Shown here piece after piece: positions 9,321-26,923 of a DNA stretch of 64,000 nt. Location: IMG/VR virus record IMGVR_UViG_3300028603_000002, positions 96,001-160,000 of that record; one strand, written 5' to 3'. This DNA is from a virus (taxonomy: Duplodnaviria > Caudoviricetes). A program made the position numbers and the translations under genes. Numbering within the stretch: the first letter of the stretch is position 1; the number at the start of each line of letters is the position of its first letter. Below the pieces are notes generated by a model. The model saw only the letters and a program-made list of their open reading frames with translations. It was not told the origin of the DNA and did no database searches.

Positions 9321-9635
9321 GTGTATGAGTAGGGAGATTTATTAACGAAAACTTTAACAAAATGACAAAGCAAGATTTTGACAGATATTTAGATTATTTA
9401 ACGTCTGAAACTGGATATGACTTTAATAAAGTGCAAAAAGCATTTGCATACCAAGCAGCTAAAAAGTACCATGAGCAAGCCTTACGCAAGCACGATGCTG
9501 TAGAGCGAAGTGAACAGTGTTGCTCACCTACCGATGGTTTTTATTTAGGAACTACTTGTCCGCATTGCAACAAACCTTTCAGAAAGGATATAAAGTGAGC
9601 AACACTGCCTACAACACCCGTATAAACTAAACATC

Positions 9636-9803
9636 ATGAAAGTAAAAGAGCTAATTAAAGAGCTTCAAAAGCAAGACCCGGAAAAGGAGGTAATGATACA
9701 GCAGGGCGAAGAATTTGACTACATGTCGATTCAAACTGTAAAAGAAATGTATGTAGATATGGACGAGGAGATGATTCTATCCGTCGTTATCAAACATTCC
9801 TGA
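9636..9803 (+). CDS. 55-aa cassette protein, not in ORF track (MKVKELIKELQKQDPEKEV...)
   Basis: Manual translation; ATG 3 nt after module 9612-9632; common phage M.VKELI..L...DP N-terminus. Confidence 0.65.
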   Translation: MKVKELIKELQKQDPEKEVMIQQGEEFDYMSIQTVKEMYVDMDEEMILSVVIKHS

Positions 9804-9807
9804 TTGC

Positions 9808-9939
9808 TGCCAACGGTTCGCAGCTATATTTAGTTGCGGATTTAGAACCACAAAACTTTAAGATTAGATAAAATGAAAATGAAAAAAGAAAATTTGGATA
9901 ACCTACAAAAACCGCAATTGAATATAGCTGCTGTTAGCA
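9808..9939 (-). repeat. attC-like site
   Basis: TGCCAAC...GTTAGCA ends; arms CAGCTATATTTAGTTGCGG (9821-9839) and CCGCAATTGAATATAGCTG (9912-9930), 17/19 complementary. Confidence 0.7.
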
Positions 9940-11346
9940 ACAGTTGTTTAGTCTGCGGAAAGCAATTAGTCAAAGAAACTGCCGAACATGGTAACGGTAC
10001 GTGCTCTGAATATTGTAATGCTAAATATAGCGGGTATCCAATGCCACACGATTATTCAGAAGGATTACAGAAGTTAGTTAACAATTGTTGCTAACGGTCG
10101 TATAAACTTAACTACCTGAATGAGCTAACTGATAACATTAATCACCTTTTAAAGTGTCATTTTCAATTATGGGAGCAGAAACAAAGAAATTAGCAGAAGT
10201 GCGCTACGTTACAGATACAGACGTAAGTTACTATGAAATTGGGGAAGTCGAAGGCGCGTTCCAAGAAGCACAACTTAAAGACTACATTAAAAGATTTGGG
10301 CACGAAAAACTATGTAGCCGACTTGCTTATATGCAGTTCCAAATATTTAAAGCTGTGCGTGAAATTAATGGCGAACGTGATGAAGAAACAGGTGCGGAAT
10401 GTTGTAATGCTACATAACACCCGTATAAATGGTAACGGTTATGTATCTGGTGGCGAGTAGCAGGGGAGTTGTAAACCCCATTGCAATGACAATGACAAAC
10501 ATTGGTAAAAACAGTGCAATATGCTTCCTCGCCACTTGTACATCACGGCTACGGCTGAACTCTCGTTGCCGACCTAAATACGAGAGATGAACTTTCAAAC
10601 ACAAATTACGATGAGTAAAAAAAACAAAGCATCGAATCAACAACAAGGCAATGGAGCTTTAGCCAATGTTAGCATTAGTGCTTCTTCGGTTGGTTGCCCA
10701 GAGTGCAAAAAGAAAGGCTGCGGATTCTGCAACGGTACTGGATTAATTTGGTTTTATCCTTCACCTGATGTTTATGACCATATAGAGATATCAAGAAGAA
10801 AATGGCGAATAGCTCAAAGGCATAAATGCTAACACCTGTATAAACTTAACCATATCCGCTATGTGTAGTAGCGGTTAAATAGAGCGAAAATTATGAATAT
10901 AGACGAAGTGATCAAAGAAATTAATGATTTAAGTGCTGAAATACAATATGTAGGCATTGATTCAATCAAAGATGATTATTCCGCACAACAAGCACTTCAT
11001 ATATTGAAGCAGAGAATAGAACCATTACCTGCACACAAAGTTAGACGTTGTGCTTTTCAGTATTGGGACGGACGTAAAATAGTTGAAGATAAAGATCAGC
11101 TTACACTTGATGAGGCCAAAGAGCTATGGAATAAACACTATACTGATATGGTGAAGAAAGTCGAAGAAGGTGAGGATATAGAAGTTGTTATTTGGGTTAA
11201 CATGAAACATCCATCAGATTATCAGGAAACTTTAATTCATTTATACGCACCCGAAGTTAGGAATGGCAGTCTTTATGAGCCTAAATATTATGGTGCAACG
11301 ATATAGAATTAAACCTAAAAATCAATAACAGATAAAACTTAATAAA

Positions 11347-11580
11347 ATGGAAGAAACTAAAAAGCAAGCATTACATAAACTAATGACTAATGAAGAAATA
11401 CTTAGCTTATATAACAGAATAACATCATTAGAACATAACAGAATAACATCATTAGAATATAGAGTTAAAACTCTTGAAGAAGAAATTGAGAAATTATTTA
11501 AAATCAATATACAACTGACAAAAAGAATTTCAAGATTGGAAAGTAAAAGATTAATAAAAGGTAGAATAGGAAGAAAATAA
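11347..11580 (+). CDS. Coiled-coil hypothetical protein with an in-frame 24-bp tandem duplication (NRITSLE x2)
   Basis: ATAACAGAATAACATCATTAGAA at 11411 and 11435. Confidence 0.6.
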   Translation: MEETKKQALHKLMTNEEILSLYNRITSLEHNRITSLEYRVKTLEEEIEKLFKINIQLTKRISRLESKRLIKGRIGRK

Positions 11581-11594
11581 AACTTTGATATATC

Positions 11595-11804
11595 ATGACA
11601 TTTAAAGAACAATTACGGAAAGATTTTATCCCCAGATTGTAACGGATAATTGAAAAAGAAATAGATCATTTAAAATGGTTGATGGATAATAATGCCGATG
11701 AGAAGATGATTGAATCTAGTGTGAAGTATTTACGACATTATAAAAAACGACATAGGGAGTATACCGAATATGCTGCACAGACAGATGATGAAAATGATTT
11801 TTAG
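11595..11804 (+). pseudogene. Small gene interrupted by an in-frame TAA at 11640
   Basis: MTFKEQLRKDFIPRL*RIIEKEIDHLKW...DDENDF* reads as one frame. Confidence 0.45.
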
Positions 11805-11838
11805 CATTGCATTAGGGTATAAGAAAGCAAATTCAGAA

Positions 11839-12237
11839 TCAGTTATCAAATATATTTTTAATAGTATTTAACTTAACTTTAGATCCGTCATATATTATAT
11901 GTTCATCATATGGAGTTTTATAATAATCAAATTTAGTAGATAATTGATCAATAACTTTCTTCATATTAGGATTCACAATTCTACCCTCAGGTATTGATAT
12001 ATGTCCATATTTATGAATTATCATAGATATCATTTTCATCGCATATCCTCTACGTTGATATTCATCTTTAATGTCGATATGTAATTGATTCCACCCCTTC
12101 TTCAATCTAAGATTAATATTGCCAATTTGATTTCCATCGTCAGTAAAATCAAATTGAACAAATTCACCATTTGTTGACGATTTAAATTTCAAACCCGATT
12201 CGTGAATAAAACGCCTATATATTTCTATCAATTTCAT
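11839..12237 (-). CDS. GNAT-family acetyltransferase-like protein
   Basis: IDIKDEYQRRGYA acetyl-CoA binding motif A. Confidence 0.6.
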   Translation of the reverse strand: MKLIEIYRRFIHESGLKFKSSTNGEFVQFDFTDDGNQIGNINLRLKKGWNQLHIDIKDEYQRRGYAMKMISMIIHKYGHISIPEGRIVNPNMKKVIDQLSTKFDYYKTPYDEHIIYDGSKVKLNTIKNIFDN

Positions 12238-12398
12238 AAATATTCCTTTTTACCAACAGCCATTAGTTATTTCGTAATATGAAATAAATATAAGGAAGTT
12301 ATTTGTCCTAATATTTCTGTCGGTATAATGTTTTATGTTAGTTTATGATTAGATTTATATCTTTCAGCTAGTTCTTTTAATGTTCTTTTGTCCATTGC

Positions 12399-13210
12399 TT
12401 ATATCATTTTAGGACTGTAACTAACATATGATTTATCCATAATTACTTCCATTAACCTCAGATCCTCAATAGATAACAGTCTAAACTGTACTGGGTCTTG
12501 GGGTATTTTATGAAGTAAACCATATCTCTCTTTATCATAGTTCAGACATAGTACTCTAACATCGTAACTCGGACCAACATCTAAGTAAAGAGTTCTCCCT
12601 ACAAAATATGCTTGCCGCAACTCTTCTAATGATTCGTTATGTTTCCCTGCCAGAAATCTTAAACAATTTGTTATGAATCTATGAGATAAACCCATTGTTC
12701 CATACCATTCAAGTAATTTTCTTTTTTCTTGTATGTCCATTATATGCAGTGTTTTATAGGTTACATAATTAACCTGATAAGTTATAATTTATACTATTAT
12801 CCTTAAATGCCTTTCGCAAATGTTTCAAGTTTCTCTCACAATGATTAGCAAACTCCGGGTCCGCGCTCCCGATGCTTGATGCATTCTCTTCTATCATACA
12901 CACAAGAGCTTCAAATTGCCTGGGTGTTAGTACCAAAGTTATCTTTTTTGCCATTTCTTAATAGTGTTTAGAAGTTATTGAATTAAGAAGGAATATCATT
13001 TCCATCATATTGCTTGAATTGTTTTTGTGTCCATCTTGTTGTGAAATACCCTTTTTTATAATTGAAATGTGATGATCTAACACAAGTACCACTAAACATT
13101 TCTCCGTACTCTTTTCCTTGTGGAGTTTCATTTAGTTTTCCGGTACATCTGACTACAATCCCATCGCTCTCTACCAAATTGCCTTCCTTAAATAAATTTA
13201 ATTGTTTCAT
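12399..13210 (-). other. Hypothetical CDSs 12399-12740, 12769-12954, 12983-13210
   Basis: Downstream of promoter 13253-13284. Confidence 0.6.
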
Positions 13211-13284
13211 CTTTAATAGTGTTTAGTTATCTAATACTTCTTAATTACATAATAAAGATAAGTAAAGTTTTTCAATTATCCAAA
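13208..13284 (-). promoter_or_regulatory. Promoter plus leader block; near-identical inverted copy at 15568-15646
   Basis: TTTGG..GAAAAACTTTACTTATCTTTATTATGTAATTA(A/G)GAAGTATTAGATAACT..AACACTATTAAAGATG shared by both. Confidence 0.8.
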
Positions 13285-13600
13285 TGATTACGAGAATATT
13301 TTCGAGAAAGATGAGAAAGATGCTATATAAAACAACCCATATAACTTAGTTGTAACAAGAGATAATCTTTATAATGGTATAAGGGTATAGATTCTCATAA
13401 ATAATCAAGGAGAATTAAAGTATGTGGGTGATACAGCAAAGTATAGGTATGGTGAGATAGTAAAACTTTAAGTGATGGCATATTAATCAGACATATTCTA
13501 GAGCCATTGAAGTATAAGATCTTGATCAGTAGGATTTAATCTCTTTTCTGAAAGAAGTTGTTTTAATTTAATGCTCATTATTTTCATTCCTTTTATATAA

Positions 13601-13894
13601 TTACTTGATTTCTAATTCACCCTCGAATGGGTTGAAACGATCTGTTAAGAATGAAGAAGATCTATGTCCTTTCTTAATATGGGTTCCTTCGGCTCCTACA
13701 ATAACAATACCACTAAATACAGTTTCACCTCCCCAATTATCAATTTTACCATCACAAAGAACTACATATTGTTTAGATGTAACGTCTGATTTAAATATAA
13801 CAAATTTATCTTTGCCGAATATCTCTTTTATCACTCGGTCAAAATCTGAGGTTGATTCATCTTCTCTTAACAAATCTTTTAGTTTTGTGCTCAT
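13601..13894 (-). CDS. Hypothetical protein, paralog of 12983-13210 with an extra N-terminal MSTKLKDLLRE leader
   Basis: Shared VV.C.GK...FSG..V...KKG...F..(Y/F)(D/E)G pattern. Confidence 0.6.
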   Translation of the reverse strand: MSTKLKDLLREDESTSDFDRVIKEIFGKDKFVIFKSDVTSKQYVVLCDGKIDNWGGETVFSGIVIVGAEGTHIKKGHRSSSFLTDRFNPFEGELEIK

Positions 13895-13914
13895 TACAAT
13901 TTTCTATTTTGCAA

Positions 13915-13946
13915 TAAATATAAGGAAGTTATTTCAATTATCCAAA
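13915..13946 (-). promoter_or_regulatory. TTTG-N20-TATATTTA promoter
   Basis: Consensus match upstream of 13894. Confidence 0.6.
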
Positions 13947-13976
13947 TGATAAGTAAAACAAGTTGCATTGAATAAC

Positions 13977-14840
13977 AAAGTACTTTGAAGTACAAAGTGG
14001 ATATAATCAGAGGGAAGCAAAAACAATCGTTGGAGGAATAAAATATTTTTTATACATTTATAATCAAATTAACTAAACTAAAAATAATAGTATCATGAAA
14101 AAAGACAAAGAGTAAGATAAAATAACAAATGCAAGTATAAGACCAGGAATTGAAGAATTCACAGTACACATGCTTTACAACGCATTGAAAGCAATGAAGA
14201 AAGATAAAGAGCGGGAGGAACTAAATTCAATAATTCCAGATAAAGAATTAGATGATGCATTTACAAACACCAATTTCGGAAATATTACAAAAAGAGATGT
14301 AGTAAGATATGCACTATTAAAAGCAGCTTGTGGATATTATAGTGGACATACAGCTCAACGTATTATAAATGAATTAGGTTTGTGTAGTAAAGATTTAAAA
14401 TTAACAAAGAAAGGTAAAAAATATTTGTATGCATCATTTAGGAATGGAACGAATCATTAAAATAAAGTAGAATACTGAATATGTGATATACGTGTAGAAG
14501 AATAAAAGTATAGTAGTATAAGTAGTTATAAAGGTTAATGGAGTATACTGATATAAGATGTATAGATTAGTAGATTGTACCACTGAGCGAAGCGAAGTGT
14601 TGAAGTAAAGTGTATAGGAATAGTTTAAGCAAGTAGAATAAAGTTATTAGGTTTGAAGGTTTGTATACGGAACGGAAGGAACGAAGTGACTGGAGTGGAG
14701 TGTATAGAAGGAATCTATACGATTAATAAAGTTATTAGTTTTACCTATATCCTGGAGATAAGTATAATTAAAGGTCTAGTTAATATTATATACAGGGGTA
14801 AGTAAAGATTTTAAAAGTACTTTGAAATACAAAGTGGATA
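13977..14840 (+). repeat. 27-bp direct repeat AAAGTACTTTGAA(G/A)TACAAAGTGGATA (13977-14003 and 14814-14840)
   Basis: One mismatch; contains the palindrome AAAGTACTTT. Confidence 0.8.
14170..14460 (+). CDS. Hypothetical protein
   Basis: ORF track. Confidence 0.55.
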   Translation: MLYNALKAMKKDKEREELNSIIPDKELDDAFTNTNFGNITKRDVVRYALLKAACGYYSGHTAQRIINELGLCSKDLKLTKKGKKYLYASFRNGTNH

Positions 14841-15149
14841 ATATATGAAAAATAAACTGTAAGGGTTGCTCTGAGTCTTCGCTTGATCTCCACAATTCCC
14901 AAACTATATTAAACTTTAATCTAATACCAAATCTTAATAAAACCAAATATCCTATTGTTGGGTGTAAAAAATCCGCGGCCTACAAAAATAAGATCAAAAG
15001 ATTTATAAACTTTAATCCACTAAAACCAAATAAAACTAAAGTTTCATAGAAATAAATACTAAACAACTTCACTCCAGTCACTCCAGTCACTTCACTTCAC
15101 TACACTATGTTACGTTTCACTTAGTTCCTTTCGTTCAGTACATAAACCT
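14657..15149. repeat. Long-range imperfect inverted repeat (14657-14700 vs 15067-15149) in a non-coding region
   Basis: AGGTTTGTATACGGAACGGAAGGAACGAAGTGACTGGAGTGGAG vs CTTCACTCCAGTCAC...TTAGTTCCTTTCGTTCAGTACATAAACCT. Confidence 0.7.
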
Positions 15150-15226
15150 AGGAATCAATTAAACATTAGTATTTGGTTATCTCCTATGTATTCATTAACT
15201 TTATTATCTAATTAACTAAACATATT

Positions 15227-15391
15227 ATGGATAAATACGAGATTACAGTATGGAGATCTGATAAGGATAATGATCCTTGGGTGGAGTATGTATATGCTGA
15301 TTCTAAATCAGAAGCTTTTAAGAAAGGAAAGGAAATGTTTTATTCATTTCAGGTAGGTAGTATATATGATGTACTTGTAGTGAAAGTTTAA
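15227..15391 (+). CDS. 54-aa hypothetical protein, not in ORF track (MDKYEITVWRSD...)
   Basis: Manual translation. Confidence 0.5.
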   Translation: MDKYEITVWRSDKDNDPWVEYVYADSKSEAFKKGKEMFYSFQVGSIYDVLVVKV

Positions 15392-15567
15392 GTGTTCTGG
15401 AATGCCCGTGAGATTGTAACTATTCCCAGAATCTTGTTATCACTTGTTTTCCTTAGTTCTCCTGTGTTTTATTGTATATTGGATACCTTATTATACCTTT
15501 GCTGTATCTCTTATTATACGTTAGTTATACACGTTATACAACTATATGAAAAATAATTGGTTAAAAG

Positions 15568-15646
15568 TTTGGAAATCTGAAAAACTTTACTTATCTTTAT
15601 TATGTAATTAGGAAGTATTAGATAACTTAAAACACTATTAAAGATG
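15568..15646 (+). promoter_or_regulatory. Promoter plus leader block (inverted copy of 13208-13284)
   Basis: TTTG at 15568, TATCTTTA at 15592-15599, ATG at 15644. Confidence 0.8.
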
Positions 15647-17062
15647 AAAAAGATATCATTAAAACAAGTAAAACAAATAGCCTCTGAAATTTCAAAGAGG
15701 TGGAAATTTGTTAAACACAGTTCATATTACAACTGTATTGATACTAAAACTGGACAGGAGTCAAATGTGGGAGGAGATTATAATTTTGCCAGTTATCATT
15801 TTAATAATGCTGTTGAGGCAATGTATTTGAGTATGATTGGTGAGAACGCGTTGTATCTTGATTGGAGTACAGTGGGTGTGAAAGAATCTGAGGAACGCAA
15901 ATCCTACATTTACAAAATACGAAAAGAGATAGTTCGACTTCTTTGTGGTTTTGACTTTGCGGGTTGCGAAGTACTTAATTATCAAAAATAACTTAGTAAC
16001 ATTAAACAAAATGGCAACAGAACAAAATATAAAAGACGGACACAGATATTTGATACAATTAAGTGTAAAGCAAGATAGCTTTTTGTTTAATATGTGGGAT
16101 TACGTTGAAAGTGTAAAAACACTTAAAGAGGCAGAAAAGCTATGTGAAGGACTATATGATAAAAGCGTTCACAAACTTCAAATATGTGATTTAGTAACGA
16201 ATACTATTGTTAGAACGTGGACGTAGCCTTGCAGCTAACATCCATATAAACTGTACATAAAATAGCAGAAATTAAAACAATAACATTATGATAAACAATA
16301 TAGTCATTAAAAATGAAACCCGTGAAATGGGGAGGAAAATAATTAAATACTTCAATGATCGAGGTATTGATACACGTATACTTAATGGCACAGCTTGCGC
16401 GGAAGAAATGCATAACAATATATACTATGGAGTTATTGATGGTTATTTTGATAACTACACCTTAAAATATGTAGAAAGAGCAGGGGCTAAAATAATAACG
16501 CTACCTGAATACCCAAAAGTAATGAGGGTAGCGCATGATAAATATTCTACCAGAACCCAACGTGTGGTCATAGGTACAGCAGATGCTGGCACCCATATCC
16601 AATATGTTGCATATAGAGATGCAAAAACATTAGATGATATACCATATCCCACTGAATTCAGGCTGTGGGACTATGCGGAAGATATTACAGAAACAGAACC
16701 TATCCTAATAGGAAATAGAGAAGTAGAAGTAACTGAAGATGGAATAAAGGTAGGTTGTACACAGGTAGACAATGAAACAATAAAAAAGATATATAACTTA
16801 AAATTTAAAGATAATGAGTAGACAAACATTCGACACTAGAGTACCTGATATGGTACAAGCAGTACTAAAGAACAATGGTGCAACCTATATAAGGAGATAC
16901 ACCGAACCAAGAATCAAAGGATATAGAACTAAATGGTGGGGAATAAATAACATCTCCCTTAATGTAGAAGAAAGGATTAAGATGTTACCTGGTATAAAGA
17001 GAGTAGTAAATATACCTGGCAAAGTTCGGTCGCCACAATCATTTGCAGTGTTTTGGGAATAA
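15644..17062 (+). other. Operon of hypothetical CDSs 15644-15991, 16010-16226, 16288-16821, 16814-17062
   Basis: Promoter upstream, terminator downstream; 16288 is paralogous to 19008-19556. Confidence 0.65.
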
Positions 17063-17110
17063 TTAAACATCCTGTATAACCAATCTGAGATTTCATTTTT
17101 ATAGTGTTAG

Positions 17111-17275: not shown

Positions 17276-17378
17276 TTCTACCTGTTAAAAGCCGGCCCAT
17301 ATGGGGTCTTAACGTGAGTATAATTTTTACTATTTCAAAACAACATTTTATTTTTTATAATATGATAATGATTTGTTG

Positions 17379-17593
17379 CTTTACTCCTACTATTCCAGTT
17401 ACAATCCACTTCGCCTCCACTTCGCCTCCGTTACACTCCGGCTCAGTATACATATCTTCAAATCTATTCCACTTTACTCCTATTATCCCAGTTACACTCC
17501 GGCTCAATATACATATCTTCAAATCTATTCCACTTCACTCCAGTCACTTTACTCCTATTATCCCAGTTACACTCCGGCTCAGTATACAAACCT
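17379..17593 (+). repeat. C-rich imperfect tandem repeats (about 61-bp period, about 3 units)
   Basis: GTTACACTCCGGCTCA(G/A)TATACATATCTTCAAATCTATTCCACTT at 17430 and 17491, partial copy at 17566. Confidence 0.8.
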
Positions 17594-17686
17594 TTGTTAT
17601 ACCCGTAGTACACAAATAAACAATGAAATACTTGTATATCTCAGAAAAATTCATTATCTTTATTATGTAAATAAAAAGTAGAAGTT

Positions 17687-17953
17687 ATGACAACTAATTG
17701 TACAACTTGTAGTAATTGCGGGCAGGTTATTGAAAATGTCATTATCATAAAAGGGAAACCTTATGGTAATACATGCGGTGCCAGACTATTAGGATTCAAA
17801 GAATTTCCTACTTGGTTTAAAGGTGGTGATTGGGATATGGCACATAAAGCGCATATCAAGTCACAGGAAGAGCAAAGTCAGTATTTTGAACGTAGACGAG
17901 AGATTACCCGCAAGCATTCTTTTCTGCTCTTGCAAGGTATGAACGATCGTTAA
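17687..17953 (+). CDS. Hypothetical Cys-containing protein, possibly truncated at a junction with the GC-richer block
   Basis: Promoter 17631-17662 upstream; 3' end overlaps convergent ORF 17904-18434. Confidence 0.5.
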   Translation: MTTNCTTCSNCGQVIENVIIIKGKPYGNTCGARLLGFKEFPTWFKGGDWDMAHKAHIKSQEEQSQYFERRREITRKHSFLLLQGMNDR

Positions 17954-20068
17954 AAACTCTACAACCATAAATACCTTCAGTCGTCAACCTCTTAATCTCT
18001 TTCCAGGACTTCACCCGCACTTTATCGCCGAGTTTAAAATCTGTAGACTGTTCACCTGCTTGTTTACCGTTACAGGACGTATCTGCCGGTGTTGCAAGTA
18101 ATTGGTCAAGCTTGGCCTCGATGCGGTTTAGCAAATCCATCAACTCGTCATCTTGCACGGATACGAGGACTTTGGCATCTTGCGGTGCTTCCGCTGGCTC
18201 GGGGTATTTTTCAAAGAATAGAGTGTAATTACCGTCATTAAGGACCGATTTCCAAAATGAATAGTCCTCCGGGGTTTCAAACCAGTCAAATCCGCCATTT
18301 ATTCTGCCAGTGGTCCGCCTCTTCTCAAACACGCTCACATCTCTTGGATTACCCTGCGTCACCTGATGCTCTAACATCTTATGAACAATTGGGTCTGCAA
18401 TGTTTTTAAGGTCGCCTTTGTATGAACATTTCATTTTGCTTGATTTTTATGTGTGAATTAATGTTATTCTTCCTCCTCCCACTCAATCAACGGACAGTGG
18501 TCGTCTTTTAATTTCTTCAGGCCATGTCCTACTGCTTTAAAGCTCTGACCTGCTTTAGATTCGCGGTTCCTCAACTTTTCAGGTAGTGCTTCGAAAAAGA
18601 GGTAGCTTAATAAAACCGTAGCTAATGCCGCTACGGGAACGAGAGCAAATACCAGAGCTGCGGCCCATACTACTTGGGATGCTGTGTTTATATATCCCTG
18701 ATCTAACTGAATCAATGCAGGCATAATGGAGATTATCAAATGAGTCAGGCCGATGCCCCATAATGCCTTAGTGCAATACATACTATGCCATGTAGGTTTA
18801 GTAGTATCTTTATCAAAATAAGACAATATATATGCTATAGAATAGTATAACACCCCCGGTATTGCAGTCACTAAGAGAAGTATAATCCCCACTAGCCCTT
18901 TCCATGTAAGGCTACACCAGTTAGTAGGATAAGAGTATGGATTACCTTCAGTAAACTGCCAGGCTTTTACGAATAGGTTGTTTTTACTCAGTTTCATAGC
19001 GGGGTATTTAGCTTTTGATTATTACCTGGTCAACGCCCAATTTCTCGGCTATTTCCTCCATTGTAAGCTCCATTATAATTTTGGGCGGAGTGTATTTGTA
19101 CTCGTCGGTGTAGAATAGATCGTCAATGCTACCTTTGATGTACTTATCTGCCTTCTCGGGCGCCAAAACTGAATCCCGCGAGATTATTCCGTCCTTTTTG
19201 GCAAATAAATATAGAAGGTGCTTGTTTTCGCTGACTGAGTCGCGACCATATAACCAACGATACCCCAACTGAATAAGCCTCACCTGAATAGCTCTTGAAA
19301 GTTCAGCGGTAGGCACATTAAACACATAGCCGCCGATTGAAGGTAATTCAATTATTTCAGCGTTGGCTTTCTCTACTTGACGCAATGTGTAATTATCGAA
19401 TTCCCCGTCAATAACTCCGTAATACCTGTAGGAATCACCATCAGATTTACAAGAGGTTCCTACAAGGTGGCGTGTATCAAATCCCCGACTTTTCCAATAC
19501 TCAATGACCTTTGCCCCGTGGTCGGGCGTTAGTGCTTCAATTACTTGGTTTTTCATTTTACAAAAGTTTTTGTTCGTTCTAAAATCTCATCCCCCAACAT
19601 CCTGCGAACAATATCGGCAGTTTGGCGTTGGTTGGCCGCTTTGTCTGAGGCAGTACGGTCAGCAGCAGCAGCAGCAGCAGAAGAATTACCACAAACAGCA
19701 CAATAAGCAGCATCAGCAGCAGCAGAACGATAACCAACAGTAACAGCAGCAGCAGCAGCAGCACGATAAGCAGCCTGCAACTCTTCCTCCGTAAGCAATC
19801 CCTCTCCGTAGGCAATAGCCGCATCAACACCCTTTATGCTGCGCGCATCTTTCATCAAATGCCTGACCGTGTTCGCACAGTGTCCTGCGCAGCCGACTAA
19901 TTTACGGCGATAAACGCCCGCTTTCTTCGCCCACCATAGCAGCCAATCGCCACGATGGCAGTCGGCTAAGGTTTGGGTAGGGGTGCGGTCGCCAAGCCAG
20001 TCAATGGCATCTTCGCAGGCAGGACCTAAATGGCCTTCGTCTGATAGTAGAAATTCTCTGAATGTCAT
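17904..20068 (-). other. GC-richer block of CDSs: 17904-18434, 18464-18997 (membrane), 19008-19556, 19553-20068 (Ala-rich, GCT repeats)
   Basis: Abutting ORFs; visibly higher GC than the flanks. Confidence 0.7.
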
Positions 20069-20489: not shown

Positions 20490-20520
20490 TTCTTTTTGTT
20501 ACCTTAAATTTCAAAATTGC

Positions 20521-20544
20521 CAGTAGGGTGAGGGTCGAACTCAC
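20521..20544 (-). pseudogene. Possible tRNA 3'-half remnant (T-arm only)
   Basis: Minus strand GTGAG-TTCGACC-CTCAC-CCTACTG; no matching 5' acceptor strand found. Confidence 0.25.
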
Positions 20545-20750
20545 AATATAGCTTCTGAATAAAGTGGGTTGCCAATTATTATCCTTTTCCCTAACGCTCC
20601 TAGACCAGTCTTATACTTTGTTACTTGATGCTGGTTTTAATTAAGCCTTTCTAATTAGAACCTTTTGATTATACTATAAATATAAGAAAGATCTTTCAAA
20701 GTACCAAATTATTTTGAATAAACTTACGTAATCAGTTTGATGGTACAGCA

Positions 20751-20816
20751 CTGGAGCTCCTAAGTGGAGCTCCAGATTTTAAAAATATATGGTATGGTGC
20801 AGAGTTGCAAACTCTG
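20751..20816. repeat. Two REP-like palindromes at the edge of array B
   Basis: CTGGAGCTCC-TAAGT-GGAGCTCCAG (20751-20775); CAGAGTT-GCA-AACTCTG (20800-20816). Confidence 0.6.
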
Positions 20817-21205
20817 TTTTGCCAACAAAAGAACTATGGCTAACAGCACCTAACCTCAATAAATTATCACGGTATTCATCGGCTGTAAAGTTTTCAAAGT
20901 TTGTGGTTTCTATATTCATTTGTACTAATTTTAAGTTGAAGATGTTAAGCTTATACGGATGTTAGCAAACATTTTCCAACCCACACCGCACTTGAATATT
21001 TCCAAGTTCCAATTCTCTTTCAATATCTTCAATATCTCTCCAACAATCTACTCCAACTGTATAACTATACCATCCACAAAAATCTTCAATACTATCATCA
21101 AAATAACCTTCTGAATATATTTCATATTCAAAACCATCGACAAATTCTTCTATTGTCGGTATTCTATATCCTTTTCTTAATTCTTCTGCCATCGCTAAAA
21201 ACGTT

Positions 21206-21299
21206 TGCTAACAAGGTATATATGCAATACCCTATTAAGGTTTGTACTAAATTTTAAAGTTTGGTGCAAGGGTGCTGCATATATACCCAACCGTTAGCC
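21206..21299 (+). repeat. attC-like site
   Basis: TGCTAAC...GTTAGCC; arms GGTATATATGCAATACCCT / AGGGTGCTGCATATATACC, 17/19 complementary. Confidence 0.75.
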
Positions 21300-22987
21300 A
21301 CCATTTGACGACCGTTGTACTTCGACTGCAATTTCTTCAAGCAATTCAAGTATTTCATTTGCCCAAGTGTGGTCTATGTTTATTTTTGATACCTGAGTGT
21401 CAAATCCGAGCTTTTTAGCAACATCCATATCGTGTCGCATTTCGCCCTTGAATCTCCTGTATTCTTCTTTTTTCTTTGTGATGAGTTCTAATACTTTTTC
21501 CATAACCGTTATCATTTATACAGGTGTTGACTACTCACCAATATAGTGTGTTTCAAAATCATAACCATCATTTACCTTTTGAAGTTTACCTTCGTCAAGA
21601 TTTATGATTTCTCTTATATTTTTAAGTTTAGTGTCAGCAATTTCTTTTGTGTGTATTTCAATATCAATACCTCCAGAACCGTCACCATCAATTTGAATTG
21701 GCAATAATCTGTTTGCACCAACATCACCACAATATTGTATTTTTCTGAGAGCAATCATAAAATCTTTTAAATCTTCATCAGAAATTGCTGTAATTCGCAA
21801 GTCAATAAATTTTCGTTCCATATTGTCGTTTTAAGTCGTTAAAATTATGTGCGCATAGCCATAACCGTTACCATTTATACGGGTATTGTAGCACATACGC
21901 TCACTACTTTTTCGGTTTCAATTTACCGTCTGCACATTTAGGGCAGTATATTGTTTGATGTTTTGTAATTCTCCACCCTTTTTTACTCCACGCACTGGCA
22001 GCATCATACGGGTCGCAATCCATTTCTCTTCCAATAGTTCTACACTTATGGCACATTATTGTGTTTTCAGTAGTACAATGTTCGTATAGTTCATGTATTT
22101 CATCCATCTCCGTTCGTTTTAAGATGTTAGTAATAGTTTATAAGGGTATTATCGGCAATTATTCCCAAGTAATTTCCACCATTTTTGCATCTTCCATCAT
22201 TTTCATTAATCCGCAAAATTCTCTCCAATGATATTCAGTTATTGTTTCACCTATACTATTACTAAGTTTATTTAAACAGTTGTATATCTCTGTATTAATA
22301 TAACTACCGCTAACAACAGGTGTACTTGATGCTTGTGTTTCTGCCATTTGTAAGTTCGGTTCTTTTTTCATGTTGATTAGTTGGTTGGTTTATACGGGTG
22401 TTATAGGCAATTGCCACTAAAGTATCTCTCTACATTCGGGACAATAATTTTCAGCAATTTGTTGAACCCATTTTTTATTTTTATGTTCACATCGTGGCAA
22501 CTGTTCGCTTTGCCGTACAACATTGTATAAATCCAATTGCTTACGTGCTTCAATCAATTGAGCTTCCAACCAATCCTTGTAGTTGTCGAGGTCAAAGTGT
22601 ATGTCTGTTTCACCAACCGTTTCAGGATGGTCAAGTCTAAATTCTTCTTCAAATGTATATCTCATAATTTCTGTTTTTTAATTCGCCCTACGCATACAAT
22701 CGACCGTTAGCGTTCAGCCTATCGCTGCGGGTAGTTAAGTTTATACGGGTGTTAGGTGTAATGTCAACACCATTCTACGCTAATCACTTTTAGTTTACAC
22801 CCATCAACATCATTTATTACATGCCCTTCCTTGGGGTGAGAGTCTGTAATTGATATTGGTTCATTTGTCGGTTCACACCCCATTTTGAACAATAGTCTTG
22901 AACCTTTAGGTAAAAATGCTTTTGAGGTCTTTGTGATGAACCAAGTTTTTAACTTTTCGTTACCCCAAGCAAATCGAACAACGCTAC

Positions 22988-23107
22988 ACCTAACATCCGC
23001 TATAGTGCACGTATGTTCTGTTGTTTTTGTAATATTTTGCATAACTCAAAGTTTATTTCTGTTTGGATGCGTTATTGAAGCCACGCACCATAGCTTTACC
23101 GTTAGGA
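22988..23107 (+). repeat. attC-like site
   Basis: ACCTAAC-ATCC-GCTATAGTGCACG...ACGCACCATAGC-TTTACC-GTTAGGA. Confidence 0.6.
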
Positions 23108-24288
23108 GAAGTTAAAGAGAAAACCAATCACTTTCCTCTTGTCTACTCAGAAGCTCCTCAACAGCCTCTTTGGTAGCAGGACAAGCGGAGTAAAAACAAT
23201 TCTTTGCTTTCACCTCAAGTTGCTTCAGCTTTTCAAAGTCTCCGTCCACTAATTGAAAAAGAAACAGAGTTTGCTCGTTGCTGTGATTAGTCCGATCGGT
23301 TAACCAATTAAGTCGTTCTTTATCAAGCTCGTACTTATAGGTATCTTTGCGTCCATACTTCAATTCCATATTCTATTAGCTTTACGATGTTACTGTTTAT
23401 ACGGGTGTTAGACGCAACGCTAAGAAACCAACCTACCTTCGACATTTTCTTTCATTTTGATTAACTCATCCCTATAACCAGAACCACCATCTTGGTTGGA
23501 ATAGGGCATTTGCAAGTGTTCATTTATTTTTACCAACAACTTAGCTGTTTTCACTTTGTTATCCTGATGCTGGTCAATCCATTTATTGTATTTACGAATA
23601 ACTTTGTTTAGTTTGGTTCTACCTTCTTTCCACCAAGATATACCTACATTTTCATCCCACTCTACTATTTTTTCCATATTCCGTTCGCTTTACGATGTTA
23701 CTGTTTATACGGGTGTTGTGTGTAATTAAAGCAAGCCATCGTTATTTTCGCCCATCATCGTATCAACGGCTTTTTCAGCATCTTTAGCCGCACTTTTAAG
23801 CAGCTTCTTTGTGTTTTCAGGTTCGTTTCCTGTGGCTACATCTACCACGTCTTTTACAATTGCAACAGGTGTAAGTGCTGTTTTTACTGCTGCTGAAATT
23901 ACGTTTGTTAAGAATCCCATTTGATTAAAATTAACTGCTGCCAACAATGTAGTAAGGCACAGGCAGCGTTTGTGCTTATCGCTGTGGGTGGTTGAGTTTA
24001 TACGAGGGGTAGGTGTAATACTAAAGATTCCTACTAACCAACCCTGTTCCATTACACCAAGTACAATCTTCTTCATTACCAAAATCGTCTATTTCAATTT
24101 TACCGCCACCCCAACAAACAGTACATTCCAATAATTCCTTAGTGGAAGTACTGCTGCCAACAGCACCTAAATCGCTATTGGCGGTGCTGTGGTTGTTCTT
24201 ACTTTCGTTCTTACTTTCGTTCATTACGGTTTAAGTTTTACCGAGTTTCCTAAATTGAGGGTAGTTATGTTTATACGGGTGTTGTGCT

Positions 24289-24693
24289 TCATGCAAGGAA
24301 ACTCCCGTGCTTAATTATGAAGTACAGTTTATTAGGGTCTCCGCCTAAATCAGGCTTGCCCCATCCGATCTCAATTCCTTTGTGTTCCATTTTCAATATC
24401 CTTTCCTTATCAGTTGATTTTGGATAACCCAATGTCATTGTGTTTGTAAGGAATGGCTTAAAACCAATCATACTTCTTTTCAATTTATCCCCTGCAATAC
24501 TTGACAGATAGGCGTTTATAGATTGTTTGTCCAAGTAATCCCAATCATATCCAGACGTGTACTTAAAAACCTTCTTATAGTCAAATACAAGTCTTTTAAA
24601 CCAGTAATCGTTTATGTCTCGATAATCTTCGGTTTTTACGCCCGATTTGGTCATGTCGAACCATTTTTTTTTAAGTGATAATTGCAAATTCAT
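24289..24693 (-). CDS. ASCH/PUA-like domain protein (cassette)
   Basis: LQLSLKKKWFDM.KSG.K.E.YR..ND.W..RL motif. Confidence 0.6.
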   Translation of the reverse strand: MNLQLSLKKKWFDMTKSGVKTEDYRDINDYWFKRLVFDYKKVFKYTSGYDWDYLDKQSINAYLSSIAGDKLKRSMIGFKPFLTNTMTLGYPKSTDKERILKMEHKGIEIGWGKPDLGGDPNKLYFIIKHGSFLA

Positions 24694-24715
24694 TTTGTAT
24701 CAGTTAAGCACGAAA

Positions 24716-24844
24716 GCACAACAATTGCTATAAAACATAGGGCGTTCGTGCGGTTATTAAAGTGTAGGGTTGTTTTTCAGGTGTTCGGTGTTTTCGAACA
24801 ATTCGGCTATCTATACCCTACGTTTCATGGCATAGCCGTTAGCG
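24716..24844 (+). repeat. attC-like site
   Basis: GCACAAC...GTTAGCG; arms GCTATAAAACATAGGG / CCCTACGTTTCATGGC. Confidence 0.7.
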
Positions 24845-24845
24845 T

Positions 24846-25034
24846 TCATTTTGACGACGCTCTCCGTACTTCTTCATTAAGCACATCGTAATTGTCTTTA
24901 ATGTACGCCTTTACATCGCCACTGCATTTGTTATTGTCATACAACCAAATCAGATAAGACGCAGGGACATTTATCATTTTATAACCTTGATATTTTCCCC
25001 AAGGCATAGGGCTTTCATCTGTTAAGTTTGCCAT
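24846..25034 (-). CDS. DUF3820-like protein (cassette); start at 25034, MANLTD
   Basis: MPWGKYQG.KM.NVPASYLIWL motif; ATG just after module 25039-25059. Confidence 0.6.
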   Translation of the reverse strand: MANLTDESPMPWGKYQGYKMINVPASYLIWLYDNNKCSGDVKAYIKDNYDVLNEEVRRASSK

Positions 25035-25071
25035 TTTGTTTAAGTTTATACTGGTGTTGTAGCACATACGA

Positions 25072-25287
25072 TCACTGCACTTTTGGTCTCCAATGTGTGA
25101 TTTCGTAATCAACATCACCATACTGTCTGTAATCGTAATGTCCAATTCCTGCCTCAATCCACCAAGTATCCCCCAAGTAGTAGCCAACAAGTATCTCATC
25201 ATTATAGTCTTGCCTTAGCTCACAATCAATAGGCTCATCGTTTGCGTCTAATTCAGGCAGTCTTTCATTTACATTTATCCAATTCAT
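25072..25287 (-). CDS. DUF551-like protein (cassette)
   Basis: MNWINVNERLPE...ITHWRP. Confidence 0.65.
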   Translation of the reverse strand: MNWINVNERLPELDANDEPIDCELRQDYNDEILVGYYLGDTWWIEAGIGHYDYRQYGDVDYEITHWRPKVQ

Positions 25288-25672
25288 ATCAGTTCACGTT
25301 AAGTTTATACGGGTGTTAGCAGCAATTATGCCCTTTTAGGATAGTGCTTCATACATTTGAAACAAGCCATTTCATCATATAGTGGTTTTAACTCAACATT
25401 GCAATCAGGGCATAACTGTTCGCTTTGCCCTACAACATCATGTATGTGTAAGGCTATGTTTAGTGCTTTATCAGCAAGTTTGTAAACAGTTGTAGTTCTA
25501 GCAAGCTGTTGTGTTTGCATTTGATGTTCCTTTATTTCTTCAAGTATCTTAATTATATCTTCCATTTCTAATAATGTTTAGTGTGAATATTCGCCCTACA
25601 TATACACCCGGCCTTTAGCGTCCAGCCTATCGCTGTGGGTGATTAAGTTTATACGGGTGTTATGTGCAAGCA

Positions 25673-26062
25673 CTACTGACCTGCTTCTTTATCAAGTTTT
25701 TTATAATGTCGTATAACATACGCAAGTTTATCTCTAAAATTAACCCTTCGCAATTGTTGAATAATGTCGCTGAATTTTTGTGCTTCATTATCAGGTATCA
25801 TCGAAATTAGTATATCATCGTGTTCGCAATGTATAGTTTCCATAAAATCATCTTGTGTCAAGCCTTCATCACAATGGTCATACATTTTTAATCTTGATGC
25901 TATTTCAGCACAATATTTGTGAGTTTTCCAGTCGTAAACTTGACCATCGTATTTGTGAGTAGATTTTATATAAGTATCACCTTTAGGTATTCTACACGCA
26001 CAAAAATTACAACTATGTTCTTTAATGGCTTTCGTTTCTTTTGGGTATGTTAATGTTTCCAT
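25673..26062 (-). CDS. Zn-binding hypothetical protein (cassette)
   Basis: KEHSCNFC..RIPKG..Y...H..C pattern. Confidence 0.55.
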   Translation of the reverse strand: METLTYPKETKAIKEHSCNFCACRIPKGDTYIKSTHKYDGQVYDWKTHKYCAEIASRLKMYDHCDEGLTQDDFMETIHCEHDDILISMIPDNEAQKFSDIIQQLRRVNFRDKLAYVIRHYKKLDKEAGQ

Positions 26063-26923
26063 ATTTTAATCAAATTTTAGTTGTTAATAACCCGCTACTA
26101 CATATATCGGATGCGGTTAAGTTTATACGGGTGTTGTAGGCAAGCTCTACTTACATCTGAAGTGAGTGAGTACTGCCATCGGATGTTCATCTTCATATCT
26201 ACATTCCGTACCATCATCAAACCTACACAGGCAGTTTCGTTTTGCGTACTCATTGAATATTGATTCATTACCTTCAAATTCGAGCCAGCCACTAACAGCA
26301 AATAAATCCAATATTCTGTCAGCGGTATTGGCAACGCTTTCACCTATTATACACTTGTTTAATAGGTCGATAATTTGTTCTCTTTTTTCCATACTGTCTT
26401 TATTATTTAAGTTAGTTGTAATGTCTCCATACTAAGCCACTCGCCTTTATATTTACCAGTGTAAAAGGGTATATTGCAAAAGCTCTCCAAAAGAAGGAAA
26501 CTTCGGCATCAAGTGCGCTTAGTATCCCGATAGTGGCGTACCACATAATCCATAATCCCACTATAAGCACCACCGCTAACAATCTACGAAATGCATTCCT
26601 ATTGGTTTCTTTATAATTTTCATCCATGATTCTATGTTTTGTGTTTATTTATTAAATTCTATGGTTCAACGCATCTAATACTCTTCCGTTGGCAGAAATA
26701 CAAGTTGGCCGTTATCCCATCCGCTCAGGTTAATTTCAATCGGCAAAAGTGACTCCTTGCCGTCATATATGCCGTGCGTGTATTGATGCAAAAACGCTAA
26801 CTGCTCATTCTCTGTCAACTCGCGGGTAACCTTAAACGACCCAGAGCCTATCGTTTCGCCAGTGTCACGTTGGTAAACTTTGAATCTGTATGCAAATCTT
26901 TGCATTCTAATTTTTCTCTAATG

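Follow-up and report, generated by a model that had tools for sequence, protein, structure and literature searches.

Small-gene arrays of a 172-kb myovirus contain translated valine junctions at which protein halves are exchanged

Introduction

In CdiA proteins (at the VENN motif), Rhs proteins and shufflons, a short conserved in-frame motif lies between a constant or variable N-terminal part and interchangeable C-terminal modules and is the point of recombination; the polymorphic toxins (CdiA, Rhs) are large bacterial proteins, and shufflons use a dedicated recombinase, Rci. In T4-type phages, promoter-early stem-loop (PeSL) cassettes occupy intergenic positions, combine a sigma-70-like promoter with a GC-rich terminator, and shuffle whole ORFs (PMC2839356, PMC4122927). 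Virulent phages, a Polaribacter phage among them, have been described as carrying clusters of attC sites without an integrase, and these clusters are functional with IntI1 (PMC9892861). Fused integron cassettes (gcuF1-blaOXA-28; aacA4 with an upstream start codon) are rare and often costly, and arise via attC loss (PMC8876359).

The DNA analysed here (the window) is a stretch of 64,000 nucleotides, positions 96,001 to 160,000 of the IMG/VR record IMGVR_UViG_3300028603_000002. Its source is a complete 172-kb myovirus genome with direct terminal repeats, the relatives of which are Flavobacterium and Microcystis myoviruses; the host of this large phage is Flavobacteria-like, its relatives infecting Flavobacteriaceae, and Tenacibaculum phage Gundel_1 is a cultured carrier of the element. 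An earlier note on this DNA had described ten ORFs crossing an attC-like recombination point in frame and had proposed that recombination there swaps protein halves.

Results

Modules and inter-module hairpins

The stretch is a hyperplastic small-gene region of the 172-kb genome, with arrays of small-gene modules at 8789..10850 (plus strand) and 20945..28598 (minus strand). The first array is punctuated by six copies, and the second by approximately 17 copies, of a 20-nt repeat with the consensus YAAC-ACCCGTATAAAC-TTAAC; the plus-strand copies are all co-oriented with the ORFs and lie at or just past the stop of the upstream ORF. The repeat gave 25 matches, against 4.3 expected by chance, and is limited to the array part of the genome. 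It is not a promoter of the sigma-70 type, and no enrichment of terminator-like sites was found. Counting both TGTTAGC and its complement, the 172-kb genome has 17 occurrences, of which 13 fall within the 21.5-kb array stretch; this recurrence, together with complementary partner arms and hairpins holding start codons, confirms the existence of the attC-like arms.

Two kinds of unit, modules and inter-module hairpins, alternate along the coding strand. Modules start with (T)GTTR and finish with YAAC; the ends of one module are mutually complementary and, with a module-specific second helix (P2), close it into a stem-loop. The inter-module hairpins have the layout R''-L''-loop-L'-R', and their loops contain the 20-nt repeat (or related sequences), an AT-rich leader that lacks a Shine-Dalgarno sequence, and the beginning of the following gene, from its start codon through its first 14-48 codons, so that many genes begin in one unit and end in the next; the boundary GTT between units is translated as valine. 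Approximately ten junction arms are matched, at the 3' end of the ORF in which they lie, by a complementary partner terminating in AAC; in seven to eight ORFs the start falls in the loop of a long hairpin, and the 3' arm of that hairpin finishes at GTT.

The attC-like layout is seen in the hairpin at 9804..9946 (plus strand; R'' 9804-9814, L'' 9819-9839, L' 9912-9931, R' 9932-9946; -31.2 kcal/mol), whose 20-bp L helix has two mismatches, both of them G.T when the sense strand is considered. ORF 9873-10094 starts in the loop, which takes in its first 13 codons; L' covers codons 14-20, R' contains the GTT (Val21), and the C-module of this ORF (9932..10095, plus strand) is bounded by the complementary arms TGTTAGCAACA... 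and ...TGTTGCTAAC. A hairpin followed by a C-module is likewise found at 10552..10833 (plus strand; L'' 10552-10570, L' 10647-10664), where the C-module of ORF 10587-10832 (10667-10833) has complementary arms, and at 22751..23108 (minus strand; R'' 23101-23108, L'' 23081-23094, L' 22999-23012, R' 22983-22995), where the C-module 22751-22995 belongs to ORF 22764-23042.

Other modules enclose a whole ORF. At 20957..21302 (minus strand), a hairpin (R'' 21293-21302, L'' 21269-21289, L' 21214-21233, R' 21197-21213; -26.9 kcal/mol) is followed by a module around ORF 20962-21192, the arms of which are 10/10 complementary, with R' upstream of the ATG. The same arrangement at 24281..24847 (minus strand; R'' within 24834-24847, L'' 24816-24833, L' 24725-24742, R' 24708-24723; -24.4 kcal/mol) encloses ORF 24289-24693, a cargo gene also present in unrelated small phages, and at 27536..27950 (minus strand) complementary arms TGTTAGCAAAC... 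and ...GTTTGCTAAC surround an ORF with its ATG at 27935.

Ten ORFs and their reading frame

The coordinates, quoted peptides and triplets of the ten ORFs that cross the junction in frame 0 were all verified, the triplet being GTT in nine and GCT at 9497. On the plus strand they are 9362-9598 (junction at 9497), 9873-10094 (9933), 10587-10832 (10668) and 10893-11306 (11040), and on the minus strand 22159-22371 (22314), 22417-22665 (22521), 22764-23042 (22994), 24021-24224 (24161), 25326-25565 (25436) and 26147-26392 (26296). The GTT at 11040 is without a partner arm or hairpin and is probably due to chance, its ORF probably lying outside the system. The junctions at 24161 (weak arm pairing), 26296 (a weak partner arm only) and 22314 are weakly supported; ORF 24021-24224 has a DnaJ-type CxxCxGxG C-half, and the eight residues preceding its valine (ANSDLGAV) are common to P0088 of the 9873 family. 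The three exceptions named in the earlier note (26412-26627 and the upstream extensions of 23726 and 27547) do cross in frame 2, and the TTG-start extension of the ORF at 27935, which crosses the arm in that frame, is doubtful.

The frame had been described as conserved, which holds for one class of junction and not across all arm types. Within the window the bias is weak, with 10 of 13 crossings in frame 0 (P = 0.03-0.19, and weaker after three paralogues are collapsed); in ordinary genes of the genome, frame 0 accounts for 46% of GTT, 61% of TGTTR and 32% of TGTTAG, and every arm type bars one frame by a stop codon. A blind scan of arms at other phage loci gave ten in frame 0, four in frame 2 and none in frame 1, so frame 0 is a preference and not a rule.

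The junction of ORFs 9362-9598, 22417-22665 and 25326-25565 is an invariant 21-mer (with GCT for GTT in the first). It was found in 105 IMG/VR contigs and at least 119 metagenome contigs, and hundreds of other phages share it. Of 231 copies, 214 lie inside complete ORFs, with CxxC in 67% of the C-halves. In 96% of 188 copies, frame 0 was open for at least 90 nt on each side; frame 2 was open in no copy. In both larger samples, the blind scan and the 21-mer copies, the frame was not random. As to whether translation might start after the GTT, ORF 9873-10094 has no downstream start codon, but some homologues of ORF 10587-10832 start just downstream of the junction.

Exchange of N- and C-terminal halves

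The proposal that halves swap at the in-frame valine, leaving the fusions open, was borne out by both protein mosaics and nucleotide breakpoints. When the halves were clustered separately, homologues did not keep to one N/C pairing: 68 linker proteins fell into 28 N and 30 C clusters, one N type occurring with 18 C types, and 183 distinct proteins, picked solely by the presence of the 21-mer, gave 160 N-half and 143 C-half clusters, nearly all multi-member clusters having several partners.

In ORF 9362-9598 (78 amino acids), a helical N-half is joined by the linker AVERSEQ to a zinc-ribbon-like C-half. Its translated stem-loop module (9497..9615, plus strand) consists of a 5' arm and bulge (the 21-mer variant), P2 and a 3' arm ending CTACAAC, with a loop encoding CCSPTDGFYLGTTCPHCNKPFRKDIK, and in five other phage contexts the same module follows unrelated N-halves, at 90-93% nucleotide identity in the two measured; for the CCSPT module there are six contexts, with flanks differing on both sides and 90-93% identity where measured. 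The N-half of ORF 22417-22665 (82 amino acids; linker VVRQSEQ, CxxC C-half) recurs with 18 different C-halves, and comparison with L154 around its module (22400..22521, minus strand; 21-mer variant, own P2, 3' arm ending CTATAAC) gave 93% identity upstream of the GTT, lost past the linker. For ORF 25326-25565 (79 amino acids; linker VVGQSEQ, double-CxxC C-half with a weak DZR_2 match), whose module (25315..25436, minus strand) has the exact 21-mer, its own P2 and a 3' arm ending GCTAAC, identity to L149 fell from 95% before the GTT to 20% beyond it. Nucleotide identity thus breaks at the GTT or inside the conserved linker, a pattern that would be consistent with cleavage exactly at G|TT.

The families of ORFs 9873-10094, 22764-23042 and 10587-10832 likewise swap their N-terminal parts at the junction. 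Among homologues of the first, conservation begins exactly at Val21 and the leaders differ (identity to L163 rises from 42% before the GTT to 83% after it); 3 of 11 homologues of the second have long unrelated N-halves joined just before the valine, and in homologues of the third the 27-residue leader is absent or replaced by another. Exchange also crosses family borders: P0084 and P0104 agree at 17 of the first 20 positions and have nothing in common past V-S, one leader being joined to two unrelated C-modules. Leaders are short and polar, with little conservation.

Whole-ORF modules are gained or lost at AAC|. In the L149/L150/L151 comparison, a one-ORF indel of 415 nt lies between copies of an 11-nt repeat that terminates in AAC, and copies of a 58-nt repeat of the hairpin element flank a five-ORF indel of 1.8 kb. 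The exchanged unit extends from GTT to AAC; similarity halts at AAC| and no downstream attC is carried along. As judged from these comparisons, units have been exchanged independently, between genes and between unrelated phages. Mosaics from single short metagenomic contigs could be assembly chimeras formed at the 21-41-nt conserved block, but cases on long contigs and in multiple samples argue against chimerism as the general cause.

Conserved folding of the modules

The C-module is a stem-loop of approximately 125 nt with strong covariation. In ten modules of seven types, compensatory changes were found in 9/10 P2 pairs, and 86% of P2 cells were paired, compared to 72% when shuffled and 30-46% when slid. 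Across 118 distinct modules (58 distinct 8-mers), 8.57 of 10 anchored positions were Watson-Crick, compared to 4.36 with permuted partners (sd 0.15), and mispairs were G.T (18) more often than A.C (4). Module length is narrow (104-124 nt from GTT to the 3' arm) and the 9-nt bulge is invariant, while the thermodynamic stability of single modules is unremarkable (z -0.6 to -3.2). Folding is favoured on the sense strand, the helix being more stable there than on the opposite strand in 9 of 13 hairpins.

The sense-strand bias, the tolerance of G.U pairs, the start codons placed in hairpin loops, the character of the leaders and the invariant bulge, which looks like a protein-binding site, would all suit purely regulatory RNA helices that punctuate a polycistronic mRNA (by processing, stabilising or translational gating), mosaicism being incidental to identical short sequences. 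We consider this quite unlikely, as there was no match to any Rfam family even at E <= 1, the 160 N by 143 C clusters go well past occasional accident, and the reading frame and CxxC content of the loop are kept; RNA and recombination roles can, in any case, coexist.

RNA anti-CRISPRs that imitate repeats are known, and the 21-mer module might mimic a host CRISPR repeat (flavobacterial repeats having a GTTG start and a CTACAAC end) and act as an RNA decoy or Cas substrate. The F. columnare CRISPR-2 repeat has 5' GTTG, internal GGGAAAGC and 3' CTACAAC (PMC5395568), where the module has GTTG, GGGCAAAGC and CTACAAC. The likeness is short and may be due to chance, however, and the module carries a translated insert of approximately 90 nt in place of the small loop of the repeat. 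Since, in addition, the arms differ in other module types of the same arrays, and the 21-mer is identical in phages of many habitats whereas host repeats vary, mimicry appears highly improbable.

Recombinase search and proposed mechanism

No match to PF00589 or PF00239 (tyrosine and serine recombinases) was found in the whole 172-kb genome, and the genes near 224 loci had no special recombinase in common, the neighbours being methylase, ERF, NinG, SSB, DnaB and terminase genes. Integron-type enzymology could not be upheld: there is no integrase in the genome, helix polarity is inverted and modules move without attC. The stretch is not an integron.

An unrecognised host or phage recombinase might nevertheless cut folded strands at the GTT/AAC base and excise the modules as structure-specific, integron-like cassettes. 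The order of elements in the hairpins (R''-L''-loop-L'-R') is indeed that of attC, AAC/GTT adjoins an unpaired spacer, and the 5' arm of a module matches its own 3' arm better than the arm across the hairpin, which in integrons, as reportedly described by Hall and Stokes, is the trace of circular cassettes cut in GTT. Breakpoints at GTT and AAC| are sharp, module length is tightly limited, the covariation of arms and P2 points to recognition of a fold, and integrase-less attC clusters are on record in virulent phages. Besides the failure to find a recombinase in the complete genome or a common candidate around the 224 loci, however, module similarity stops at AAC| instead of continuing across a downstream attC as far as the following GTT, GTT/AAC lies outermost on the helix of the translated module, opposite to attC, and folding is on the sense strand, compared to the bottom strand in integrons. 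The CCSPT module, moreover, was essentially missing from 185,579 prokaryote species (one genome each; one weak hit), and the cassette pool is not common with that of bacterial integrons. We regard the integron-like alternative as unlikely.

The reading we favour, and hold to be reasonably probable, is a two-unit architecture whose units are exchanged independently via general recombination or replication at the hairpin arms, yielding combinatorial small proteins. Exchange would take place in co-infected cells by the phages' general recombination or replication machinery, with the conserved arms, which can form hairpins, serving as sites of short-homology recombination or of template switching, as proposed for T4-type PeSL cassettes, and a dedicated integrase would be unnecessary; by analogy with PeSLs, recombination at short conserved structured arms is our best guess. 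The sense-strand helices are probably kept either for a role at the RNA level, affecting how the polycistronic mRNA is stabilised, processed or translated, or because they favour exchange. Plain homologous recombination does not explain the complementary, covarying module ends or the narrow length, which fit a structure-recognising enzyme or an RNA function, and the right-hand homology patch (11-12 nt) is short for homologous exchange.

Discussion

The net effect would be combinatorial two-module small proteins, many with zinc-ribbon-like C-halves, and the system points to a little-known phage route to new small proteins, in which front and back halves are separately exchangeable at a valine junction. 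The system may have been selected as a diversifier, or the mosaicism may be a by-product.

Among known systems, PeSLs resemble these arrays: in the hyperplastic regions of large myoviruses, small ORFan genes are separated by composite elements that recur, and recombination between copies inserts, deletes and replaces genes (compare the repeat-flanked indels of L149/L150/L151), with no known dedicated recombinase in either. They differ in that the arms here lie within coding sequence, in frame, so that protein halves are exchanged, and in that the module ends pair and covary and the 20-mer is not sigma-70-like.

Integron attC sites and CALINs (PMC9892861) share with the arrays co-oriented small cassettes, imperfect hairpins with AAC...GTT boxes, a sequence-free second helix and a cassette 5' end complementary to its own 3' box. 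Here, in contrast, there is no integrase, the exchanged unit ends at AAC| and excludes the hairpin, helix polarity is reversed with a sense-strand fold, genes start in hairpin loops, and the cassette pool is confined to phages. In fused integron cassettes, too, translation begins outside the cassette and reads through the recombination junction into it, but here such read-through is the regular architecture, conserved in hundreds of phages. As in CdiA (VENN), Rhs and shufflons, an in-frame motif separates the halves and doubles as the point of recombination; in the present system, however, both halves are variable, the proteins are of approximately 80 amino acids, and the junction lies within a covarying stem-loop.

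Genomic setting of the two arrays

The record from which the window derives was found to be a complete genome of 171,908 bp with direct terminal repeats, the window comprising bases 96,001-160,000. GC content is approximately 32%, and the baseplate wedge protein shares 41-48% identity with its counterparts in Flavobacterium phage immuto and Microcystis phage Mel-JY01. A megablast search of the 22-kb region against GenBank phages returned no match. Approximately 40 small ORFs (named here by their start position in the window) lie in two convergent arrays, one on the plus strand at 8.8-10.9 kb and one on the minus strand at 20.9-28.6 kb. Direct reading of the sequence indicated that gene leaders in the array region are AT-rich and lack a Shine-Dalgarno sequence, as is usual in Bacteroidota. 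The sole clear Pfam match within the arrays was to DUF4326 (E 6e-19), in a cassette cargo at 26924-27301 (minus).

Other repeated sequences were also observed. A second intergenic element of 40-50 nt, with TTTG...TATTATG-like pieces, is found at 12271, 13239, 13901, 15172, 15568, 17631, 20663, 29186 and 29357; it resembles Bacteroidota -33/-7 promoters and is situated at the borders of the arrays and the central block. Tandem copies of 51-nt and 29-nt units, spaced 61-93 nt apart, occupy 17379-17616 inside overlapping ORFs (17314-17681). Four consecutive ORFs of 171-182 aa at 17904-20068 (minus), with no Pfam match, form a GC-rich island (45% vs approximately 32%) and are overlapped by a plus-strand CAG/CAA-rich repeat with a 9-nt period at 19650-19772.

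A lineage-specific 20-nt repeat

The sequence ACCCGTATAAAC (with up to two mismatches) gave 25 matches in comparison to 4.3 expected by chance, and was restricted to the array part of the genome. Its curated form, YAAC-ACCCGTATAAAC-TTAAC, is present in 24 copies across the two arrays, all of which share the orientation of the ORFs and begin at or just past the upstream stop. Only single chance matches to the 15-mer core were found in IMG/VR, the full 20-mer had no match in JGI metagenomes, and Mel-JY01, immuto and two large IMG/VR genomes, which are the nearest relatives, showed no enrichment. The repeat is therefore lineage-specific as far as the relatives and collections scanned are concerned, and wider comparison was made via proteins and via a separate 21-nt junction block (the 21-mer).

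The position of the repeat suggests a promoter role. A sigma-70 promoter was rejected, as no -35/-10 pair at 16-18 nt spacing was found, and sigma-70-like sites were not enriched (27 vs 29.7 expected), in a scan that covers promoters of the sigma-70 type and not those of Bacteroidota. Intrinsic terminators between genes were likewise rejected (5 terminator-like sites vs 5.3 expected). Between the repeat and the next hairpin there are ORF-less pieces of 50-60 nt, TTAAC-TACCCACAGCGATAGGCTGAACGCTAAC, at 22700-22750, 9098-9157, 25590-25658 and 23960-24007; copies from the plus and minus arrays are 94-96% identical, which suggests recent exchange between the arrays.

Hairpins and modules alternate along the arrays

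The attC-like arms reported in the earlier note proved to be real elements: of the 17 occurrences of TGTTAGC or its complement genome-wide, 13 fall in the array stretch. In approximately 10 cases the AAC-ending sequence directly 5' of the repeat has a complementary, GTT-starting partner 100-440 nt upstream. Two kinds of unit alternate, namely inter-module hairpins and modules. The hairpins are ordered as R'' (...YAAC), 2-6 unpaired bases, L'', loop, L' and R' ((T)GTTR...), with folding energies of -17 to -31 kcal/mol for those at 9804-9946, 21197-21302, 22983-23108 and 24708-24847. Within the loop lie the repeat (or a relative of it), the leader and the start of the next ORF, from its ATG through the first codons; L' and R' are coding. 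It was considered that the flanks of the 5' arms might be decayed inverted promoter copies; this was rejected, as the ATA-containing flanks are the L' arms of hairpins.

A module runs from R' to the next R'', and its two ends are better partners for each other than for the adjacent arm on the far side of the hairpin. Whole ORFs, with R' upstream of the ATG, are enclosed by the modules at 20957-21213, 24281-24723 and 27536-27950, and other modules enclose only the C-terminal part of an ORF. Compact empty hairpins, with 10-bp arms (...CACAAC / GTTGTG...) and a loop of approximately 19 nt followed by a T-run, were seen in two of the compared phage contigs (L156, approximately 4870-4918; L154, 9229-9281), and resemble simple terminators. 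One such loop, TCGTTTTAATG, is common to the unrelated phages L149 and L154.

Reading frame across the junction

Ten ORFs (9362, 9873, 10587, 10893, 22159, 22417, 22764, 24021, 25326 and 26147) had been reported to read through the crossover triplet; these ORFs, their junction peptides and their coordinates were all confirmed, with the triplet a frame-0 codon. The accompanying claim of a conserved frame is weak within the window, since in ordinary genes of this genome frame 0 already accounts for 46% of GTT, 61% of TGTTR and 32% of TGTTAG occurrences, every arm type bars one frame through a stop, and the ten ORFs include three paralogues. When arms partnered at the ORF end were sought blind, 10 lay in frame 0, 4 in frame 2 and none in frame 1, so that frame 0 is a preferred convention and not a universal one. 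The claim did hold in the larger sample of 21-mer copies: of 188 copies among the matches listed, 96% had frame 0 open for 90 nt or more on each side, and none had frame 2 open to this extent.

Halves of proteins are shuffled at the 21-mer

The proteins encoded by ORFs 9362, 22417 and 25326 are 27-28% identical, but their junction nucleotide block is nearly invariant. Direct reading revealed no variation at the synonymous positions of the linker, even where the codons (GGG, CGA and CAG) are unusual in an AT-rich genome; the constraint therefore acts on nucleotides. A profile search identified approximately 80 relatives of similar length in a plainly mosaic alignment. The 68 linker proteins fell into 28 N clusters and 30 C clusters; one N type was joined to 18 C types and another to 9, and 22 N types shared a single C type, partner counts that are inflated relative to abundance because the window's own proteins served as the seed of the search.

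A DNA pattern search located the exact 21-mer, GTTGTAGGGC-R-AAGCGAACAG, in 105 contigs of IMG/VR and in at least 119 from metagenomes, whereas an earlier peptide-pattern search of IMG/VR gave no match. The several hundred phage contigs come from many habitats, among them seawater, salt lakes, fresh water and digesters, and Tenacibaculum phage Gundel_1 is a cultured carrier. No paper containing either the 21-mer or its peptide was found in the literature searched. Among the matches listed, 214 of 231 copies lay in a complete ORF with GTT in frame, the junction being preceded by a median of 46 residues and the linker followed by 28. The 183 distinct proteins among these matches, a sample free of the seeding bias, formed 160 N clusters and 143 C clusters, and several partners were found for 28 of the 30 multi-member C clusters and 16 of the 19 multi-member N clusters. 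Only seven codons are constant, and ORFs with the 21-mer cannot be treated as ordinary protein families in annotation. For many homologues the source is a single short contig, and these may be assembly chimeras at the 21-41-nt conserved block.

Sharp breakpoints at GTT were also apparent at the nucleotide level. Identity between window ORF 25326 and L149 falls from 95% upstream of GTT to 20% downstream, while that between ORF 9362 and L161 rises from 35% to 93%. The suggestion in the earlier note that recombination at the Val junction would swap protein halves is borne out both by these breakpoints and by the multi-partner clusters.

The C-module of ORF 9362 (the CCSPT module) was found behind unrelated N-halves in a T4-like genome, in an HK97-like siphovirus (beside the capsid gene), in a DNA-polymerase-A phage and in others. 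Nucleotide identity of the module was 90-93% in the two contexts measured, and the downstream flanks differed in every case. A cassette bounded on both sides between the G and TT of GTT, as in integrons, did not agree with these data: in six contexts similarity ends immediately after AAC or after an inner AAC, the sequences downstream being unrelated. The inner helix of the module (9518-9608) starts with TGTT and ends with AACA, and in L161 and L162 similarity stops at the inner AAC, so that the boundaries appear to be nested.

The 21-mer module is a translated stem-loop

One helix is formed between the initial 12 nt of the 21-mer and a 3' arm, TTGCCTACAAC, which is exact in 136 copies among the matches listed and lies 104-124 nt from GTT. 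An invariant bulge occupies the next 9 nt, and a second, inner helix joins the 10 nt that follow the 21-mer to the 10 nt preceding the 3' arm. Compensatory changes were observed in 9 of these 10 inner-helix pairs in ten modules. Across 118 distinct modules, with 58 different 8-mers, Watson-Crick pairing was found at 8.57 of 10 positions, compared to 4.36 with permuted partners. Mismatches were G.T on the sense strand in 18 cases and A.C in 4, so it is the sense strand that folds; the longer hairpins follow the same trend, the sense-strand helix being more stable in 9 of 13. Single-sequence folding gave weak z-scores, and it is covariation that supports a structure. No Rfam match was obtained at gathering or permissive thresholds.

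Exchange in other families and turnover of whole modules

In the family of ORF 9873, conservation across ten homologues starts exactly at Val21, behind leaders of 14-47 residues that are partly unrelated. Three of 11 homologues of ORF 22764 carry long unrelated N-halves, one with a truncated copy of the VGRS linker, and several homologues of ORF 10587 start just past the junction. The leader of P0104, a homologue of ORF 10587, matches the leader of P0084 (9873 family) at 17 of 20 positions, the two proteins being dissimilar thereafter, and the eight residues preceding Val in ORF 24021 are common to P0088, also of the 9873 family; exchange therefore crosses families.

Gain of whole units was seen between the closely related contigs L149, L150 and L151. 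Relative to L149, L150 contains a 415-nt, one-ORF insertion between 11-nt repeats ending in AAC, positioned immediately after AAC, and L151 contains a 1.8-kb, five-ORF insertion between 58-nt repeats of the hairpin element. All three contigs also carry a thymidylate synthase gene followed by a NUMOD3-type endonuclease ORF (L149, 11340-13273; L150, 8221-9890; L151, 6275-8193), the synthase being split into two ORFs in L150.

Proposed mechanism and significance

At the level of sequence, the modules exist, are structured, are read in frame and have been exchanged at their arms. The exchange itself would be the work of general recombination, or of template switching, acting during co-infection on arms that are short, conserved and able to form hairpins. 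A bolder reading, which we regard as possible and rather doubtful, is that Bacteroidota phages carry an undescribed class of translated stem-loop modules of approximately 125 nt (an invariant 21-nt 5' arm with bulge, a second helix of free sequence, a loop of approximately 28 codons and an 11-nt 3' arm), which would be mobile as units, recognised by fold and provide a wide range of unrelated small genes with interchangeable C-terminal domains, amounting to in-frame exon shuffling in viruses of prokaryotes with its own enzyme or RNA-level partner. Should a fold-specific enzyme or RNA partner exist, it would represent a new recombination or RNA-processing activity and a possible tool.

The exchange of modules bears on how phages come by so many small genes that evolve fast and have no known function. 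As the junction of gene halves can be searched for as an exact sequence, module shuffling in phage proteins becomes countable and testable, and Gundel_1 or its close relatives offer a cultured phage in which the element is available.

Comparison with known systems

A CALIN, by definition, has no neighbouring integrase. The complete genome gave no match to PF00589 (tyrosine recombinase), with a control matching in 14 of 14 genomes, and no serine recombinase; among 224 loci, a search for a shared special recombinase beside the element found only ordinary early-region genes. The integron attC layout, 5'-R''(RYYYAAC)-L''...L'-R'(GTTRRRY)-3' with pairing of the R and L boxes and an unpaired spacer, is matched in its order by 6-8 inter-module hairpins here, but several arms break the R/Y consensus (e.g. 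GTTAGCA and GTTGTAG), and in the translated 21-mer module the GTT/AAC pair is at the outer end of the helix, the reverse of attC polarity. The mobile unit of an integron is an ORF with its own attC, bounded at both sides between G and TT, whereas here similarity ends after AAC; integrons fold the bottom strand with extrahelical bases, whereas here the sense strand folds. A source in bacteria or their prophages was rejected too: a search of prokaryotes (single representative genomes of 185,579 species) for the CCSPT module gave one weak match, and the module pool is restricted to phages. Membership of the integrons was rejected on these grounds: no known recombinase found, wrong unit boundaries, reversed module polarity, sense-strand folding and a phage-restricted pool. 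Phage CALINs are already known (PMC9892861), and translation across integron junctions is known as a rare accident only (PMC8876359). Over a short length the module also resembles a CRISPR repeat of Flavobacterium (PMC5395568), which is noted as a lead only.

The PeSLs of T4-type phages (PMC2839356, PMC4122927) consist of a strong sigma-70-like early promoter and a GC-rich stem-loop terminator, whereas here the 20-nt repeat has no -35/-10 pair and neither kind of site was enriched in the sigma-70-type scan. As with PeSLs, however, the repeated elements flank ORFans in a hyperplastic region, and indels between close relatives are bounded by repeats; PeSLs are the closest functional precedent. 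Arrays of attC-like hairpins in lytic phages need not be integron debris.
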